Origin: a virus | Lineage: Duplodnaviria > Heunggongvirae > Uroviricota > Caudoviricetes | Virus record (IMG/VR): IMGVR_UViG_2541047885_000001 | Strand: one strand, 5' to 3' | Length of the DNA stretch: 21,692 nt | In this document: piece by piece, positions 152 through 15,302 of the stretch | Layout: each line of letters opens with the position of its first letter | Numbering within the stretch: the stretch's first letter is position 1 | Made by a program: the position numbers and the translations under genes | The notes under the pieces: generated by a model | What the model saw: the letters and a program-made list of their open reading frames with translations, nothing else | Told to the model about the DNA's origin: nothing | Database searches by the model: none

Positions 152-331
152 ATGCGAAACGAAAAATTGCAGATGCGTAGAGCGCAAGCTGCCGCAAGAC
201 GTTCTTTCAATGGAAGCGTAGAGTACGTAAAAGTTACTATGACAAAAGATCACGCAAGTCGCGTATCCCGCGCTTTCTTTGATTCTCGTAACAATAAGGA
301 AAATTATGAGTTCGTCTGCGTCGCAGAATGA
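152..331 (+). CDS. Candidate small basic protein (59 aa), first gene of a possible two-gene cargo module; below the ORF-track length cutoff
   Basis: ATG at 152 with GAGGT 8 nt upstream; open frame to TGA at 329..331; overlaps the start of the downstream ORF by 26 nt in another frame. Arg/Lys-rich translation (MRNEKLQMRRAQAAARR...). Confidence 0.25.
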   Translation: MRNEKLQMRRAQAAARRSFNGSVEYVKVTMTKDHASRVSRAFFDSRNNKENYEFVCVAE

Positions 332-851
332 TAAAAATCAAATTGTCAGATATAAGGGTCGAGTATTGCATACGCAAAATTTCTCGGCCCTTTGTGCATC
401 TGATCTTGAGCTGAAGAAAGTATCTGATGCCTTTACCCAGTATTGGAAAACGGGATACCATCCATCTCTTGGTAAAGATGCTGCATTTGCTCGTCCGACA
501 GAAATGCTTAAACTAAATGTCAGGCATACTCATGTCGATAACCAAGACTATATTCCAGAAGATAGTGATAAAAAACACACTGGTAAAAAATCATCTTGGG
601 ATGCATGGAAAAATATAGCGTCTGTGCAAGTAAAATGCATACCAACAAGTGATTGCTTTTTAGTTTATTCGGTAAATCACAATCGTGATGCGCTGGTTAT
701 GTTTTTTGTTGACGCAGATGCCCACAACATAACTGAGCAAGAAGAGTTTAAAGAGGCAGCAATCACTATCAGTTATCAATTCTTTGAGAAAACAAAAACA
801 GAACCAATGCCTTTAGAAGAAGATCTTTTTTCTGATAAATGGAAGGAATAG
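306..851 (+). CDS. Hypothetical protein (181 aa), low-GC cargo gene; no family recognised
   Basis: ORF-track frame 279..851; ATG at 306 preceded by AAGGA at 296..300. Roughly 38% GC against about 50% in flanking phage genes. Followed directly by an intrinsic terminator. Confidence 0.6.
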   Translation: MSSSASQNDKNQIVRYKGRVLHTQNFSALCASDLELKKVSDAFTQYWKTGYHPSLGKDAAFARPTEMLKLNVRHTHVDNQDYIPEDSDKKHTGKKSSWDAWKNIASVQVKCIPTSDCFLVYSVNHNRDALVMFFVDADAHNITEQEEFKEAAITISYQFFEKTKTEPMPLEEDLFSDKWKE

Positions 852-871
852 CCCGCAGCGCGGGCTTTTTT
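851..871 (+). terminator. Rho-independent terminator after the 181-aa ORF
   Basis: GCCCGC / GCGGGC stem followed by a T6 tract, overlapping the TAG stop. Confidence 0.6.
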
Positions 872-943
872 GTGGACGAAACAAAAGTCAGTGCTACACT
901 CATTGACGCCACATTGAGGTGGCTTATAGATGGAAATTTCACA

Positions 944-1105
944 ATGAAAAAAGCATTTGCTGCACTGTTCGTTTTGTTGTCTCTGGTAGCGTCAACTCAG
1001 GCCTTTGCCGGTCGTTGTCAGCACGACAGCGACACTGCTGCTGACGGCTCACGCTGCGGTGGGCGTTCTGCGGATTCCCGCCCGGGCGGCGGTGGCATTC
1101 GTTAA
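944..1105 (+). CDS. Possible small secreted peptide (53 aa) with a signal-peptide-like N-terminus
   Basis: ATG at 944 within ORF-track frame 839..1105; MKKAFAALFVLLSLVASTQAFA resembles a Sec signal with an AFA-G cleavage site. Weak RBS; Gly/Arg-rich low-complexity tail. Confidence 0.25.
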   Translation: MKKAFAALFVLLSLVASTQAFAGRCQHDSDTAADGSRCGGRSADSRPGGGGIR

Positions 1106-1154: not shown

Positions 1155-1188
1155 GCACATCCCTGTGCCGCCGTTCTGTCAGAAGAAC
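1155..1188. repeat. Right arm of the 34-bp inverted repeat; overlaps the last codons and stop of ant
   Basis: Exact reverse complement of 1..34; the ant stop codon (1179..1181) lies inside the arm. Confidence 0.85.
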
Positions 1189-2123
1189 CCTGCTTTGTCG
1201 TTGATATACTCCGCGTGCGTCTGGATATCACGCAGGCATTTGCTCACACCGACGATGTAGCAGAACATGGTGGTCAGCTCCGCCGCCGCGCCCGATACAT
1301 CGTGCCCGTCGTCCTGCAACTGGTTTAGCAGATTCATCAGCAGTGAGTTCTCCGTCAGGCCGAGAACACCAGACGGAGAATGAATCAGGCTGCGGTAGCC
1401 GGGCTTCAGCGGATAACCATAACATTTTGTCTGTGTTTTAATTGCCTCACGAAGCGCATCTAACATCTTGACTGCCACTTCATCATTCTCTGATGCAGAT
1501 CCAGCAGGGAGATGCTCCCCTTCAAGCGGAACCCGAGCAACAAGAGACAACGCTTCGGCGAATTGATCTTCATCAATTTCTTTGTACGAACAGCCAAAAT
1601 GAGATTTCAGTGACGACCACATGGTGATCATCGCCTTAGCCTGTTTTTCTTTTGGCAGAGACTGACCGCGACTCATGACGAGTTGTTTAATGGCTTCCTG
1701 CTGTTCAGTGGTTATTTTACCCGGCAACGCCTTTTTAGCTTTGCGTGGGTTAACCACATGGCCTTTAGTCCAGTACTCGTAGAGCACATCGTCACACTCT
1801 TCCTGATACTGGATTACCTTGTCGCGGATTTCAGGACGGACTTTGTTAGGGCTGATGGTTTGCAACCAGCCAGCAAGTTTGCGAAGTGCCAAACAAATAA
1901 TCTCACGGCGCTGTTCATCCCCAGGAAGCTGCATTGTGATTTTCACAATGCAGGTTTTAAACCGCTGCTTCATTTTCGTAAACTGTGAAGCCCAATCCAT
2001 ACCCATGCCTTCAACGATAGGTTTCATTGGGGTGTACGGTTCTCCGTTGTGATTGACAACATAAAGTTCTGCGCCGTGGAATGGCACGTTGATAGTAGAT
2101 ACCGCTGTTGCTATACTCGTCAT
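1179..2123 (-). CDS. ant: Phage antirepressor (Ant-like), 314 aa
   Basis: Sits downstream of an Arc-like gene and divergent from an Mnt-like gene, as in P22 immI. N-terminal region looks like antirepressor N-domains; size close to P22 Ant (300 aa). Confidence 0.75.
   Translation of the reverse strand: MTSIATAVSTINVPFHGAELYVVNHNGEPYTPMKPIVEGMGMDWASQFTKMKQRFKTCIVKITMQLPGDEQRREIICLALRKLAGWLQTISPNKVRPEIRDKVIQYQEECDDVLYEYWTKGHVVNPRKAKKALPGKITTEQQEAIKQLVMSRGQSLPKEKQAKAMITMWSSLKSHFGCSYKEIDEDQFAEALSLVARVPLEGEHLPAGSASENDEVAVKMLDALREAIKTQTKCYGYPLKPGYRSLIHSPSGVLGLTENSLLMNLLNQLQDDGHDVSGAAAELTTMFCYIVGVSKCLRDIQTHAEYINDKAGFF
2089..2117 (+). promoter_or_regulatory. Sigma70-like promoter antisense to the ant 5' end (candidate Psar)
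   Basis: TTGATA (2089..2094), 17-bp spacer, TATACT (2112..2117); predicted start near 2124, opposite the ant start codon (2121..2123). Confidence 0.45.
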
Positions 2124-2197
2124 GTCGTTAATTCCTATACGTAGTTTTACGATACTGAAGCCCTGACGGTCTGGCCACCGTTGGGCTTCGCTGTTTT
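2124..2197 (+). ncRNA. Candidate sar-like antisense RNA (~70-75 nt) covering the ant start codon and RBS
   Basis: Runs from the antisense promoter to a plus-strand hairpin (GAAGCCC 2157..2163 paired with GGGCTTC 2183..2189, inner ACGGT/ACCGT stem) followed by a T-rich stretch. Complementary to the ant SD (2133..2136) and ATG. Architecture parallels P22 sar. Confidence 0.4.
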
Positions 2198-2363
2198 ATG
2201 CCACGCTATTCTTCTCACCAGTGAGTCCATACACTTTCCTCAGCTGATAGATAATCTCTGTATTGAACTTTCGGCATTCTTTTTCGCCATTTCTTTCAAT
2301 AGCTAACTTCACATCGTCCGGAAAACGAACTCGTCGTTGACACATCTCTTTTGCTTTTTGCAT
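2196..2363 (-). CDS. arc: Arc-like ribbon-helix-helix repressor (55 aa from ATG 2363; the ORF track extends to a TTG at 2399)
   Basis: ATG at 2363 with AAGGAG 7 nt upstream. Translation matches the Arc pattern (basic N-terminal beta strand, RVRFPDDV..., NTEIIYQL). Lies immediately upstream of ant. Confidence 0.8.
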   Translation of the reverse strand: MQKAKEMCQRRVRFPDDVKLAIERNGEKECRKFNTEIIYQLRKVYGLTGEKNSVA

Positions 2364-2378
2364 TTCATATCTCCTTAG

Positions 2379-2447
2379 CCCCACCGTGGGGCAAAACAAT
2401 TGTCACACCGTGCGTCATTGATGTCAAGCACACGGTGAGGCATACTT
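2379..2447. promoter_or_regulatory. Divergent Pant / Pmnt promoter region with three candidate operator heptamers
   Basis: Minus strand: TTGACA (2427..2422), 17 bp, GACAAT (2404..2399). Plus strand: TTGATG (2418..2423), 17 bp, CATACT (2441..2446). CACCGTG at 2382..2388 and 2406..2412, and its inverse CACGGTG at 2431..2437; near-palindrome CCCCACCGTGGGG at 2379..2391. Confidence 0.5.
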
Positions 2448-2483: not shown

Positions 2484-2915
2484 ATGAGCAGAGAAGATCC
2501 ACAACTAAGGATCAGACTTCCCGTTGAAGTAAAAGAAAAAATAGAAATTTCTGCAAAAGCCAATAAGCGATCAATGAACGCTGAAATAGTACAACGTCTT
2601 GACACCAGCTTTCTGAAAGATATTCATGAAGATGACGTAATTTCTGCTTATGAAGCAAAAATTATTGCAAACAATGCACGACATGAAATATTAAATATTA
2701 TTTTCAAAAGAACCTTTAATGAAATTAATAAGAAAATAACACTTGGACATACAAGTTTTTATATAAACCTTAATGACCTTGAACTGGAATCACTTGCAGA
2801 TAATGATTACCAGATCATCTTTGAAAAAACATTTAATAAGCTCAATGAACTAGGTTACATCATCTGTGAAAACTCATGGGATGCAGATGGTTTTGGAATT
2901 GAAATACCTGAATAG
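2484..2915 (+). CDS. mnt: Mnt-like RHH repressor (143 aa) with an unrecognised ~95-aa C-terminal domain
   Basis: ATG at 2484 with GGTGA 5 nt upstream. N-terminus (DPQLRIRLPVEVKEKIEISAKANKRSMNAEIVQRL) closely resembles the P22 Mnt DNA-binding domain as I recall it. C-terminal domain contains an internal repeat. About 30% GC. Confidence 0.8.
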   Translation: MSREDPQLRIRLPVEVKEKIEISAKANKRSMNAEIVQRLDTSFLKDIHEDDVISAYEAKIIANNARHEILNIIFKRTFNEINKKITLGHTSFYINLNDLELESLADNDYQIIFEKTFNKLNELGYIICENSWDADGFGIEIPE

Positions 2916-2926
2916 GAAGAACAAAA

Positions 2927-2947
2927 GGCGTGTACATATTACACGTC
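2927..2947 (+). other. Hairpin between mnt-like and the downstream gene (possible partial terminator or attenuator)
   Basis: GGCGTGTA / TACACGTC stem with a 5-nt loop, followed by TTTAATA. Confidence 0.3.
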
Positions 2948-3005
2948 TTTAATACAATTGAAAAACGCCACATTACTGATGTATGTTACAACAAGGAGCG
3001 ATATT

Positions 3006-3580: not shown

Positions 3581-6500
3581 TCACCGCATCACCGGATCCA
3601 CCTGGTTTATTAGTGGCGCAATCCAGAACAGGTTATTGCCTGGTATCAGGGTTCGGGCATTATGCACAATACGATCACCGGCATCACCATTCAACACTCC
3701 TGCGGTCACATCAATGATGCTATCCGCAAGACCAAATGACGGTCCGAATAGAGATCCTACGAATCCACGACTGGCATACCTAGACTGTGTGCCAGTGCCA
3801 AATAAAGCCCCCAGCCCAACAGCACCACCAGTAGCCTTTTCAGCCATGTTGTTATATTCCATCAATGGTCCAAGAATACCGGATCTATCTATACCCTCAA
3901 GCACCAGTTTCTCTGGTGACCAGTCAACATTTTTCCCTTTCGATGCTTCTTTAAGCGCATAGACCAGTGAGCCAAGAGCAATCTGAAATGCAGTGCCATA
4001 ATAAAATTGCGCAGTTCCTTCCTGTAACCCACCAAGTAGCGCACGGTTGTATGAAGCCGTTGTGAATGATTTAAACTGAAATATCGTTCGCCCCATTGGA
4101 GTACTCGCCCATAAAGGTGTGTCACCAATACCGGGGGTGATGATAGTGTTATTAACGTCTTTCAGAACCGCTGACTGGAATACTCCGGCAACGTACTGAT
4201 CATCCCATTTATCAAAGTTACCAATGTGCCATCCATCAATTACCTCGCCATGTTTCCCGAACTCACTGCGAATACGTGCAGCCATATTGTCGTTGATACC
4301 GAGTTTTGCCAGGCGGCGTGCAGGAAATGCACCGGACAAAATACCGTCTGAAATAACCATTCCGTTCATGGATTTGTTTATGTCATTAAAGCGATCCATG
4401 AGTGTCAGCTTGCCGAAGGCATCAGTAATTCGCTCCATTCCGGCTTCGACTGCTGTTGTCCTGGAAGAGCTGTCAACAAGATCACCAATTGCACGAGAGC
4501 GTGAATGCAGTACAGTTTCCAGTCCGATACCCATCTTCAACATCTCTTCTTTGCTGGCCTTAAATGCCGGTGATTGGGATATCTGAGAAGCATAGCCTTT
4601 CATGGTGTTACGGAAACCATTAACCATAACCCCTCTGGCCAGATCTGGAATAGCTGATACTGTCATTCCACCGAGTTTGGTCGTGAAGTTCACATCCCGC
4701 AGAAAAGCGCCAGCACGAACAAAAAACGAAGACGGATCATCAGGCATCCCATATGTACCAACAAGACGATCGCGTAATGCTGTTATGTCTCTGAGATCAT
4801 TTGCTCTTGATTTTGAAAGTCTGGACTGTTCTTTCCGTAATTCCTTTTCGTACTTTCGCATTAATGAATCGAGTTTACCCTGAGGAACAACTTCACCATT
4901 GCTCTCATAACGTGCTTTCAGATTTGCCACACTTTCGTCATATTTCGCCTTTATTTTTTCAGGCACTTCCCGTAACAGACTGTCATATTCGTCCTCAATT
5001 AATTGCAGACGCTCAGTCATAGTTCGTTTGCCAAATGTTCTCGTCAACTCAATTTCTGCTGCCGCTTCACGGATATGACGTTGCAGCACGTAATTCACAT
5101 CACTTTCAAGATAATCCCTGATAAGACTATCAGGAACATTTAATGTTCTTTCTTTCGTACTACCTGCGGCTTTTACAGAAAATACGCTGACAAAATCCTG
5201 TGGAACCTTAGCACCAGTAATTTTATTAATTACGATATCTGCTGCAATTTCAGCATCCTCAGGAACCAGTGTTTTATTTCCTCTCGACCACCAGTCAACC
5301 AAAATACGTCGAAATTTATCGCGTTCACTGATTATTTTTCCAACTTTATATATGCGTGGGAAATAGCTTGCCTGGCCTAATGCTTTCAGTTCTTCATCTG
5401 GCGGCAATAAACCAAGCTTTTGCATTTCAACTTTCACCCGATTTAATACAGTTCGCATCGCCTGCGCCGTTTCCTGAACAACAGGATTAGCATGCACATC
5501 ACCGCTTCGCATAGCATTCCCAACCTGCTGACGAAATGAATCAAAACTCATGTCACCACCATCAGCTTTATACTTTGCGTATGCCTGTTTATTTCCGACA
5601 ACAACAGCAGCTTCTTCACGCTGCCATCCACGTGTACGGGTTTCTACAGCTACCGGTGTTTCAATCCCCCTTTCATTTCCTTTAAGGGTGAAATTATTTT
5701 CGGCTAACTCCAGCGTTGTTTTTCGCACTGTCCTGGACGGAGACTCCATTAACCTTGTCAAAGGAGTAAGATAGCTCCCTGCTTTCCATGCAGCCTTTCC
5801 AACCACCCCACCAGAAACAGGGGTTAAATCATCCAGAGTCGCTGTATCAATTTTCATAGCACCAACACTACCACCATCGGAAAGCGAAGCGGCAGCCCTG
5901 TCAGTCACTGATGTAATGCTCATATTATCAAGAGCATCAGCAACCTCACGTGTGGCTGCAGCCCGGACGGATGGCGAAAGCGCAACACCAGCACTGGCAA
6001 ACACGCCGCTCATCATCGCCCCCGCTGCAACGTGAGCGGCACTTTCACCCCATGAGCGTGTTATTTGCTGATTATTCAGTACAACCTCGCTTAATGCTGT
6101 ACCGGCAGCACCAATCGCAATCTGTGAGCCAATACGCGCCAGTGCCCCTCCTTGAGCACCGGGAATAAACATTGACGCAACAGTAACCGGATCCATTCCC
6201 GCAGCAATACTGGCAAGGGTTCCAACTACGCCAGCATCAGACAATAAACGTCTGTCTTCATTTTCATCATCTATCTGCTGCTTAATCCACGCCGTTTCCT
6301 CTGGTGATCGGGAATCTGCAAATTTCGCCCCCCAGTATTCATAACCGTGCAACTCATTTTTATCAGCATATGGGTTATAACCCTCGACCGGTTCAAACTG
6401 TCTGGCTGGGCGGAAAAAACCAGACAGAATATTGTTCTGTCGCATTGCAGCCCCCCATACGGAAGGCTCAGGTGGCAATGGCTCAGGATTAGCCCCTTCC

Positions 6501-6595
6501 GGAAGGGCAACATCAAACCCAGTTTGTTCCGGCAAAACATTACCTGACGGGATCAGTCCGTTATTAAGATCTTCAGCTTGTGCATAAACTGGCAT
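3581..6595 (-). CDS. Internal virion / DNA-ejection protein (1004 aa)
   Basis: Last gene of the late operon before immI (the position of P22 gp16). Long coiled-coil-like segments and Gly/Ala-rich hydrophobic stretches. ATGA start/stop overlap with the upstream gene at 6595. Confidence 0.8.
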   Translation of the reverse strand: MPVYAQAEDLNNGLIPSGNVLPEQTGFDVALPEGANPEPLPPEPSVWGAAMRQNNILSGFFRPARQFEPVEGYNPYADKNELHGYEYWGAKFADSRSPEETAWIKQQIDDENEDRRLLSDAGVVGTLASIAAGMDPVTVASMFIPGAQGGALARIGSQIAIGAAGTALSEVVLNNQQITRSWGESAAHVAAGAMMSGVFASAGVALSPSVRAAATREVADALDNMSITSVTDRAAASLSDGGSVGAMKIDTATLDDLTPVSGGVVGKAAWKAGSYLTPLTRLMESPSRTVRKTTLELAENNFTLKGNERGIETPVAVETRTRGWQREEAAVVVGNKQAYAKYKADGGDMSFDSFRQQVGNAMRSGDVHANPVVQETAQAMRTVLNRVKVEMQKLGLLPPDEELKALGQASYFPRIYKVGKIISERDKFRRILVDWWSRGNKTLVPEDAEIAADIVINKITGAKVPQDFVSVFSVKAAGSTKERTLNVPDSLIRDYLESDVNYVLQRHIREAAAEIELTRTFGKRTMTERLQLIEDEYDSLLREVPEKIKAKYDESVANLKARYESNGEVVPQGKLDSLMRKYEKELRKEQSRLSKSRANDLRDITALRDRLVGTYGMPDDPSSFFVRAGAFLRDVNFTTKLGGMTVSAIPDLARGVMVNGFRNTMKGYASQISQSPAFKASKEEMLKMGIGLETVLHSRSRAIGDLVDSSSRTTAVEAGMERITDAFGKLTLMDRFNDINKSMNGMVISDGILSGAFPARRLAKLGINDNMAARIRSEFGKHGEVIDGWHIGNFDKWDDQYVAGVFQSAVLKDVNNTIITPGIGDTPLWASTPMGRTIFQFKSFTTASYNRALLGGLQEGTAQFYYGTAFQIALGSLVYALKEASKGKNVDWSPEKLVLEGIDRSGILGPLMEYNNMAEKATGGAVGLGALFGTGTQSRYASRGFVGSLFGPSFGLADSIIDVTAGVLNGDAGDRIVHNARTLIPGNNLFWIAPLINQVDPVMR

Positions 6596-14309: not shown

Positions 14310-15302
14310 TTACACCACGCGGGCTTCTGTTTCCAGAAGCGCATCAGTTTCACGGATTGGTACACCACGGAATGAAGTCCACCACTCGCCTTCTGTCTCT
14401 TTTACGCTGATAGCCAGAGATGTTTTCTCCAGAGACTGCAGATCAAGAGCCTGGCCTACAGTGCGGTTCATGTAGAACACCGGGCGGCCCATGCCAAGGT
14501 TTGGAATGCGATGTAGTGCTTTAACCATCAACTTCGCAATATTTGCGGCAGAGGATGGTTCTGAAATATTGCTGACATCGATGTTTGCAATGCGAACAAC
14601 ATAACGCCAGTCACGCAGAGCAAGTCCGTTATCCCATTTGTAATGGGTGCGATAGCCTTCGTACTTGCCGCCATTAGCATCTTCCAGTGTCACCTGGCCT
14701 TTATCTTCCATCTGGATGCCAGCCTTCTGCCCTTTCGGGAAGATGCCATGCACGGTGTTTTCGCCCCACACCACTAACCAGATTGAGGTGTTATCTGTAC
14801 CCGTGCCACCAGCATCAATGATGTTCTGAGCATTACCCGCAGACAGGCTGGAATAGCGGGAGGACAGTCCCATAAACTGCTGAGGGTTAACGCTGGAATC
14901 ACCATAAAACAGCGTCTGCGCCATCTGCTGATTCATCGCTTCAATAAATGCGCGGTCTTCAGAAAGGCGGAATTCGGCGGTATTGCCGTTCAGATCAGCC
15001 AGTGACTTATCGACTTCAGCATAGGTTTCCAGCATGCCCACGGAATCGGTTACCTGCACTGTGGTTGATTTGCTTGGCTGTACGCCATAGTTCAGCAAAC
15101 GCCAGGTAGCTGAAGGTAAACCAGAACGAATGGTGGTTCGGTGTCCGGTAGGAAGGTTCCCTTCGACAAAAGGCATATCCTGAAGGATCGGGTTAGTTTG
15201 ACCGAGGAGCTCGATAATCTTATCGACTTTCCCGTTTGGATCGACGCGCTTACCCCAGTCAGCCAGCGTTAGCGCAGTTAAGCCTTTAACAGCCATTGTC
15301 AT
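14310..15302 (-). CDS. Major capsid protein (330 aa; more likely start is the ATG at 15296)
   Basis: Follows the scaffold gene; size and composition typical of HK97-fold coat proteins of T7/epsilon15-like podoviruses. GAGG sits 8 nt upstream of the second ATG. Confidence 0.85.
   Translation of the reverse strand: MTMAVKGLTALTLADWGKRVDPNGKVDKIIELLGQTNPILQDMPFVEGNLPTGHRTTIRSGLPSATWRLLNYGVQPSKSTTVQVTDSVGMLETYAEVDKSLADLNGNTAEFRLSEDRAFIEAMNQQMAQTLFYGDSSVNPQQFMGLSSRYSSLSAGNAQNIIDAGGTGTDNTSIWLVVWGENTVHGIFPKGQKAGIQMEDKGQVTLEDANGGKYEGYRTHYKWDNGLALRDWRYVVRIANIDVSNISEPSSAANIAKLMVKALHRIPNLGMGRPVFYMNRTVGQALDLQSLEKTSLAISVKETEGEWWTSFRGVPIRETDALLETEARVV

Follow-up and report, generated by a model that had tools for sequence, protein, structure and literature searches.

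The window, by which we mean the entire 21,692-nucleotide stretch of viral DNA analysed here, is 97.6% identical to Escherichia phage TL-2011b, which has been named as a Uetakevirus (PMC11522302). Positions 2050-2420, the sar/arc stretch, match a segment of the E. coli OkiPb01683 chromosome with 100% identity, and at least 80% of this stretch is carried by 38 of 5,426 complete genomes. Here a small arc-like reading frame and the anti-repressor gene ant lie downstream of a virion-protein gene (3581..6595, minus strand) and run in the same direction, while an mnt-like gene occupies the opposite strand, an arrangement as in P22. The locus contains the following features.

1179..2123, minus strand: ant, encoding an anti-repressor of 314 aa (P22_AR_N, Pfam PF10547, E = 9.6e-45; PHROG 524 and 245, 'anti-repressor Ant')
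2089..2094, plus strand: -35 element of Psar, TTGATA, 5/6 to consensus, within ant codons 10-12
2109..2117, plus strand: extended -10 element of Psar (TG-C-TATACT), over ant codons 3-4 (AGT ATA) and GCA of codon 5
2121..2136, minus strand: ant translation initiation region and predicted sar target, with AGGAA (complement of 2132-2136) separated by 9 nt from the AUG (2123..2121)
2124..2197, plus strand: predicted sar RNA, about 72-74 nt (from Rfam RF00262, covariance model R1 and the P22 annotation)
2124..2153, plus strand: stem-loop I, GUCGU (2124-2128) with ACGAU (2149-2153), its loop including UUCCU (2132-2136)
2156..2190, plus strand: stem-loop II, a terminator hairpin of 14 bp in which U2164 is bulged, with the loop CUGGCC (2171-2176)
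2196..2363, minus strand: ORF (55 aa) for an arc-like small repressor, sharing an operon with ant and preceding it (PHROG 228, E = 3.4e-5)
2399..2427, minus strand: candidate Pant, TTGACA-17-GACAAT with TG, a consensus match only, in a place analogous to P22 Pant; it would drive arc-ant
2484..2915, plus strand: mnt-like divergent repressor, 143 aa, N-terminal Arc/ribbon-helix-helix (Pfam PF03869, E = 1e-14)

The two repressor genes differ in how readily they are recognised. The mnt-like gene is named 'Arc family DNA-binding protein' in RefSeq. The arc-like ORF is called 'Arc-like repressor' in the TL-2011b record and is weakly supported: it matched the PHROG 228 family of that same name, and the Pfam search gave no recognised family for its 55 aa (Arc, E = 0.11). 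Neither the TL-2011b record nor RefSeq annotates sar or any ncRNA at the locus. Moreover, RefSeq (NZ_AP042515) begins the ant coding sequence at a GTG at 2087 (3038 in locus L245), 12 codons downstream of the ATG at 2123, the equivalent of which is used as the ant start by P22, TL-2011b and all homologues. The RefSeq start is thus 12 codons too far downstream, and as a consequence the promoter described below is hidden in an apparent spacer.

Several further sequence elements were observed around these genes. Around the divergent promoters (2375-2442) there are three copies of the motif CACCGTG: the first lies within CCCCAC-C-GTGGGG, a palindrome at 2381-2393 shortly past the candidate Pant -10, the second between the Pant hexamers (2406-2412), and the third, inverted, at 2431-2437. 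The arc-like and mnt-like repressors probably use these motifs as operators. At 2418-2446 a candidate Pmnt, TTGATG-17-CATACT, was read by eye. In P22, transcription from Pant activates Psar. Terminator-like hairpins of the minus strand were seen at 1111-1128, 50 nt past the ant stop, and at 2929-2945, between the virion-gene operon and the mnt-like gene, where the hairpin could limit read-through into arc-ant. Within ant itself, a perfect 11+3+11 palindrome (CTGCATTGTGA-TTT-TCACAATGCAG; 1929-1953, gene nt 171-195) was found, of which, by estimate, about 0.03 would be expected by chance in the window. Other Ant N-terminal classes carry different palindromes in the same place (ggtatggtgGAAATcaccatacc, ggtatagagGAAATctctatacc and gtaactTTAagttac), the P22 class has none, and the compensatory changes alter the protein (IVKITM, MVEITI, IEEISI). 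The palindrome may form a hairpin in the ant transcript or serve as a binding site for a protein.

The first-pass annotation had proposed a near-consensus promoter within the first ant codons, firing in the opposite direction, and this was borne out, as were all of its coordinates. Psar (TTGATA-17-TATACT; 2089-2117, plus strand) is directed away from ant; its -10 hexamer (2112-2117) coincides with ant codons 3-4 and is preceded by TG at 2109-2110, and the site scored 10/12 with the extended -10 in the promoter scan. The block TTGCTATACT..TCATG was unchanged in a four-way alignment of the window with P22, coliphage CUS-3 and a Klebsiella phage, comparison loci that came from BLAST or the Ant protein, independently of the motif. 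The -35 element differs by Ant N-terminal class, being GTGTTA (3/6) in P22 and TTGATA (5/6) in the class of the window, and the latter was also found with CUS-3-type Ant N-termini.

In all sar-bearing loci retrieved by protein or DNA similarity, Ser-Ile-Ala at codons 3-5 was encoded by AGT-ATA-GCx; in loci retrieved by pattern, the same codons are present by construction. The siphovirus YYZ-2008 carries an Ile-to-Leu codon change and its hexamer is TAAACT, so that the key -10 positions are kept, which points to a constraint at the level of DNA. Ant homologues of Mannheimia and Pasteurella phages (Pasteurellaceae) have neither the promoter motif nor the hairpin, and the motif is therefore not simply a requirement of the Ant protein. 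Pure coding constraint was rejected as the explanation of the promoter.

The 5′ end of the predicted RNA, G2124, was placed by homology to the annotated P22 sar, and lies 7 nt past the -10 and opposite ant position -1; the 3′ end was predicted within the U-run 2194-2197. The start had at first been placed directly opposite the ant ATG. It does fall at the start codon, but it adjoins the ATG (G2124 against 2123..2121) rather than overlying the AUG. From there the predicted RNA spans the ant leader from -1 to about -72, including the Shine-Dalgarno sequence AGGAA. The record for P22-pbi (sar 15021-15090, ant ATG 15091, Psar 15097-15125, t-sar 15021-15058) places 6 nt between the -10 and a start that adjoins the ATG, and the spacing in the window is identical. 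This annotated geometry confirmed that the antisense RNA of P22 occupies the same relative position.

The plus strand folded into two hairpins with a minimum free energy (MFE) of -23.7 kcal/mol (z = -2.98). With only 5 bp, stem I is short, and the 5′ half of the window RNA alone reached -3.0 kcal/mol against about -6 for P22; the UUCCU in its loop is an anti-Shine-Dalgarno sequence, the complement of the ant AGGAA. In stem II, 2156-2163 and 2165-2170 pair with 2177-2190, after which come GCUGUUUU and the U-run. The hairpin and T-rich stretch expected about 70 nt downstream in the arc-ant spacer are thus present (2156-2190 and 2194-2197), the U-run being overlapped by the stop codon of the arc-like ORF (2196-2198).

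The gap between stem and U-run had been regarded as a weakness of this terminator, a concern that did not hold: a short gap ahead of the U-run is the norm of the sar family. The tail of P22 sar, CAACUUUACG, has only three U, whereas that of the window, CGCUGUUUUAUG, has four. Tails of homologues are often CACUGUUUU or CAACGUUUUU, and CxCUGUUUU, as in the window, is common to many of them. Termination is predicted from sequence, and the hairpin and U-run would give an RNA of 72-74 nt compared with the family length of about 68-69 nt. For P22 sar, a length of 69 nt is reported (PMC3134472, citing Liao et al. 1987).

RF00262 (sar) was the sole Rfam family above threshold in the 21.7-kb window. 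It matched 2125-2192 on the plus strand over its full length (model positions 1-68), at a borderline 45.2 bits, 2 bits over the gathering score of 43 (E = 1.9e-6 for the whole window); P22 and CUS-3 scored 96 and 84.6, respectively. The identical E. coli chromosome segment gave the same match. R1, a covariance model built from 8 hand-annotated seed sequences, matched 2124-2202 at 70.5 bits (E = 4.7e-14). Matches to mir-33, hairpin ribozyme, mir-460 and NPPA-AS1 in 1900-2500 were far under their thresholds and were rejected as chance or palindrome artefacts.

Scanning of a 3-kb region returned 4 promoter-like sites where 6.8 were expected and 4 terminator-like sites where 2.6 were expected. Such matches are about as frequent as chance predicts and alone prove nothing, which speaks for an account of the locus as a coincidence of one promoter-like and one terminator-like match. 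The two covariance-model E-values given above, together with the presence of the same arrangement in more than 70 distinct loci, leave that account a vanishingly small probability; it is already refuted by the Rfam, R1 and covariation results. The element stands above chance because the Rfam covariance match, the z-score of the fold and conservation with covariation across homologous loci coincide. The first-pass reading of a sar-like antisense RNA was supported by the RF00262 match, the P22-like geometry and the mnt/arc/ant context.

To collect homologues, viral contigs were scanned with an exact pattern in which the -10/ATG block was invariant and the RNA body was left free, yielding about 75 distinct sar-like sequences. 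Since 240 of the 252 fetched loci, including most of the covariation set, came via a pattern fixing this block, its conservation in the pattern-retrieved set is by construction. A scan of genome contigs with TTGCTATACTNNTCATG (15 fixed bases, 596 Gb) gave matches that were nearly all due to chance, the genuine ones being Hafnia, two Xenorhabdus contigs and a few others.

When 75 variants were aligned with MAFFT alone, stem I fell out of register and RNAalifold detected only stem II; 76 matches were therefore realigned with Infernal using R1. All 43 distinct 5′ halves folded alone into a hairpin with a closing stem from +1 or +2, and the arms of stem I vary (GUCGU/ACGAU, GUUGGU/ACUGAC, GUCAAUA/UGUUGAU, GCCGG/CUGGC, GUCUU/GGGAC and others). 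Standard pairs filled 97.5% of cells across the 76 loci, compared to 91.7% after shuffling and 22-51% when partners were slid, counts that are inflated because R1 fitted the alignment to the structure. Double-sided changes were detected in 11 pairs, comprising all six modelled pairs of stem I and five of the 14 in stem II, where 98.6% of cells were paired. None of 500 shuffles reached any of the observed covariation measures. Across homologous immI regions, the comparison singled out by the first-pass annotation as a check, both helices thus covary (76 loci, in an alignment fitted to the model).

An alignment-independent check was provided by comparing the two strands. In the 76 loci, G-U cells outnumbered A-C cells by 327 to 10 on the sar strand, and the mean MFE was -29.0 kcal/mol on this strand compared to -19.7 for its complement, the sar strand being the more stable in 75 of 76. 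Since G-U pairing is possible on the sar strand only and A-C cells would pair only on the ant mRNA strand, and given the difference in energy, the conserved fold belongs to the plus-strand RNA and not to the arc-ant mRNA.

This result bears directly on the proposal that the hairpin acts in the minus-strand arc-ant mRNA, as an intercistronic stabiliser, a processing site or an attenuator, with the apparent promoter a by-product of the Ser-Ile-Ala codons. The complement of stem II does fold in the predicted ant leader (in which the ant Shine-Dalgarno sequence is unpaired), and the -10 coincides exactly with ant codons 3-4. Nevertheless, we consider the proposal very improbable. On the minus strand the G-U pairs turn into A-C mismatches, with the loss of mean stability noted above, and the leader fold reached a z-score of only -1.52. 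The invariable AGT-ATA-GCx of the similarity-found loci and the TAAACT retained by the Leu variant of YYZ-2008 also stand against a codon by-product. A terminator or attenuator on the minus strand between arc and ant was looked for and rejected: the hairpin is followed there by AGUAUCGUAAAAC and no U-run, and the terminator scan reported the plus-strand site only.

The locus bears signs of recombination. Relatives of the phiV10 type share only the C-terminal part of ant, inverted, and from about 1413 onward (the N-terminal part of ant, sar, arc and mnt) no match was found in the phiV10-type region compared, which gives this stretch the look of an exchangeable cassette. Homology to CUS-3 covers 1515-2170, ending inside stem II, and homology to the Klebsiella phage covers 2108-2196. 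Among the homologues, the three main classes of stem I each combine with the same arc-side classes, producing 16 four-gamete quartets. This free combination suggests that the conserved sar blocks are also recombination joints, and it fits the CUS-3 record, in which the stretch adjoining the ant start is marked 'bsq2; boundary sequence'.

An alternative explanation holds that the blocks are kept mainly as ant/arc joints of mosaic phages, the RNA being unmade or non-regulatory here. The CUS-3 label next to the ant start, the quartets and the chimeric nature of the window itself all agree with such a view, yet it appears very improbable. Joints need sequence identity rather than pairing, leaving the compensatory changes in both helices unexplained, and the 327:10 excess of G-U over A-C, the kept -10 positions and the anti-Shine-Dalgarno sequence of loop I are likewise unaccounted for. 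Joint and regulatory roles are, moreover, not mutually exclusive.

A reading that combines the two roles can be offered tentatively: sar may possibly be both a regulator and a hinge for immI shuffling, its conserved blocks serving as the joints at which modules reassort. The near-invariant blocks would be the Psar -10/ATG block and outer stem II, and the Ant N-termini, the stem-loop I 'specificity' classes and the arc-side modules would reassort independently. If true, this would provide the route by which a P22-type cassette entered a Uetakevirus-type prophage, as well as the origin of the chimeric window sar, with its CUS-3-type loop I and Klebsiella-type stem II. As a corollary, a resident sar could repress in trans the ant of an incoming phage that shares its stem-loop I class, which would constitute RNA-based cross-immunity.

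Overall, these data argue that 2089-2197 of the plus strand very probably encodes a homologue of P22 sar with its own promoter. The window sar is a divergent, unannotated copy and an ordinary member of the known RF00262 family. The sar RNA of P22 was described by Liao et al. 1987, Wu et al. 1987 and Schaefer & McClure 1997 (as cited in PMC2629481); by pairing with the ant leader, it occludes the ribosome-binding site (PMC7968456, PMC2629481), and sar has already been predicted in several P22-like phages (PMC2629481, PMC12111858, PMC13397905). From this P22 literature we infer that the window sar would be transcribed and would repress ant translation.

In the model that we favour, RNA polymerase would start at Psar, within the first 12 ant codons and in the direction opposite to the gene, to produce a plus-strand RNA of about 72 nt that runs from G2124 to the hairpin and U-run of the arc-ant spacer. 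The RNA would fold into two stem-loops, the first presenting UUCCU against the ant Shine-Dalgarno sequence. Being made from the opposite strand, it would be perfectly complementary to the ant leader (-1 to about -72), and pairing would sequester the ribosome-binding site and block synthesis of Ant from any transcript entering ant. Pant is one possible source of these transcripts and read-through of the upstream virion-gene operon another; read-through transcripts are plausible targets because arc-ant lies downstream of the virion-protein gene in the same direction. The outcome would be an anti-repressor that is helped to stay off.

The value of this finding is mainly for annotation: a predicted regulatory RNA has gone unannotated in a type of prophage that occurs in E. 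coli, Shiga-toxin producers among them. With its P22-centred seed, the Rfam sar model misses clear homologues from Klebsiella, Xenorhabdus and YYZ-2008, and a broader seed would recover many more copies. Control of anti-repressors by sar is not confined to P22-like phages but travels with the immI cassette into other lineages.

IS10 RNA-OUT and lambda OOP are likewise short antisense RNAs encoded in cis, each with a promoter and a terminator of its own. RNA-OUT spans a ribosome-binding site (Ma & Simons 1990, as cited in PMC7968456). However, the targets are different, transposase for RNA-OUT and the cII 3′ end for OOP, and both are unrelated to sar in sequence; neither gave an Rfam match at the window locus.

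The C4 antisense RNA of P1/P7 immI (RF01695, with isrK) resembles sar in being a small RNA that keeps a phage anti-repressor off, but it belongs to a different family and acts by a different mechanism: C4 arises by processing of the same transcript and base-pairs with target sites upstream. No match to RF01695 was found in the window, nor in 1900-2500 at E up to 10. To the left of the window, about 0.7-0.9 kb from its first base (L245 40-221; L001 1071-1269), this prophage has an isrK-like RNA (63-77 bits with RF01394) and, at about 0.8 kb, a copy of C4 (78-80 bits with RF01695), both upstream of a BRO-N gene. At its 3′ end this BRO-N gene repeats the ant 3′ end in inverted orientation, with 95.7% identity to window 1155-1412. 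Two genes of the anti-repressor type are therefore present in the prophage, each apparently controlled by a separate antisense RNA, and they flank a gene for a YafO-family toxin-like protein (279-851, plus strand; Pfam E = 1.2e-5, just above the cut-off). A small ORF (839-1105, plus strand), annotated as membrane-anchored in TL-2011b, also lies between the two anti-repressor genes.

Within the sar family, the homologues of the Klebsiella phage (L004), siphovirus YYZ-2008 (L246) and Xenorhabdus (L212) fell below Rfam reporting and scored 27-54 bits with R1 (53.8 bits for the Klebsiella sar). All three have the same position, the same promoter and a compensated stem II. The Xenorhabdus beddingii contig (L212) has three sar-like matches within 2 kb (2295-2372, 2921-3003 and 3985-4063) and two complete mnt/arc/anti-repressor modules in tandem, one with a different type of anti-repressor (N-terminus MNNVANK...); the third match is apparently orphaned.

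The likeness to P22 sar extends to the promoter in the first ant codons with TTGCTATACT as -10, the start adjoining the ant ATG, the two stem-loops, of which the first displays an anti-Shine-Dalgarno sequence, the predicted 3′ end at the arc stop and the mnt/arc/ant neighbourhood. Outer stem II, GAAGCCC/GGGCUUC, is common to P22, the window, CUS-3 and the Klebsiella prophage. In contrast, stem I differs from that of P22 in the sequence of its arms and loop, and stem II in that of its inner half. The window also has a -35 nearer to consensus, a tail of four U rather than three, a barely recognisable Arc-like protein and an mnt-like protein of 143 aa, and its host element is a Uetakevirus-type (epsilon15/phiV10-like) E. 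coli prophage rather than a P22-like phage. CUS-3 matches the window in stem-loop I and the Ant N-terminus, and Klebsiella phage ST899-OXA48phi17.1 matches it in stem-loop II and the tail. As neither sar matches over the full RNA and each accounts for only a part, the window sar is a natural chimera.
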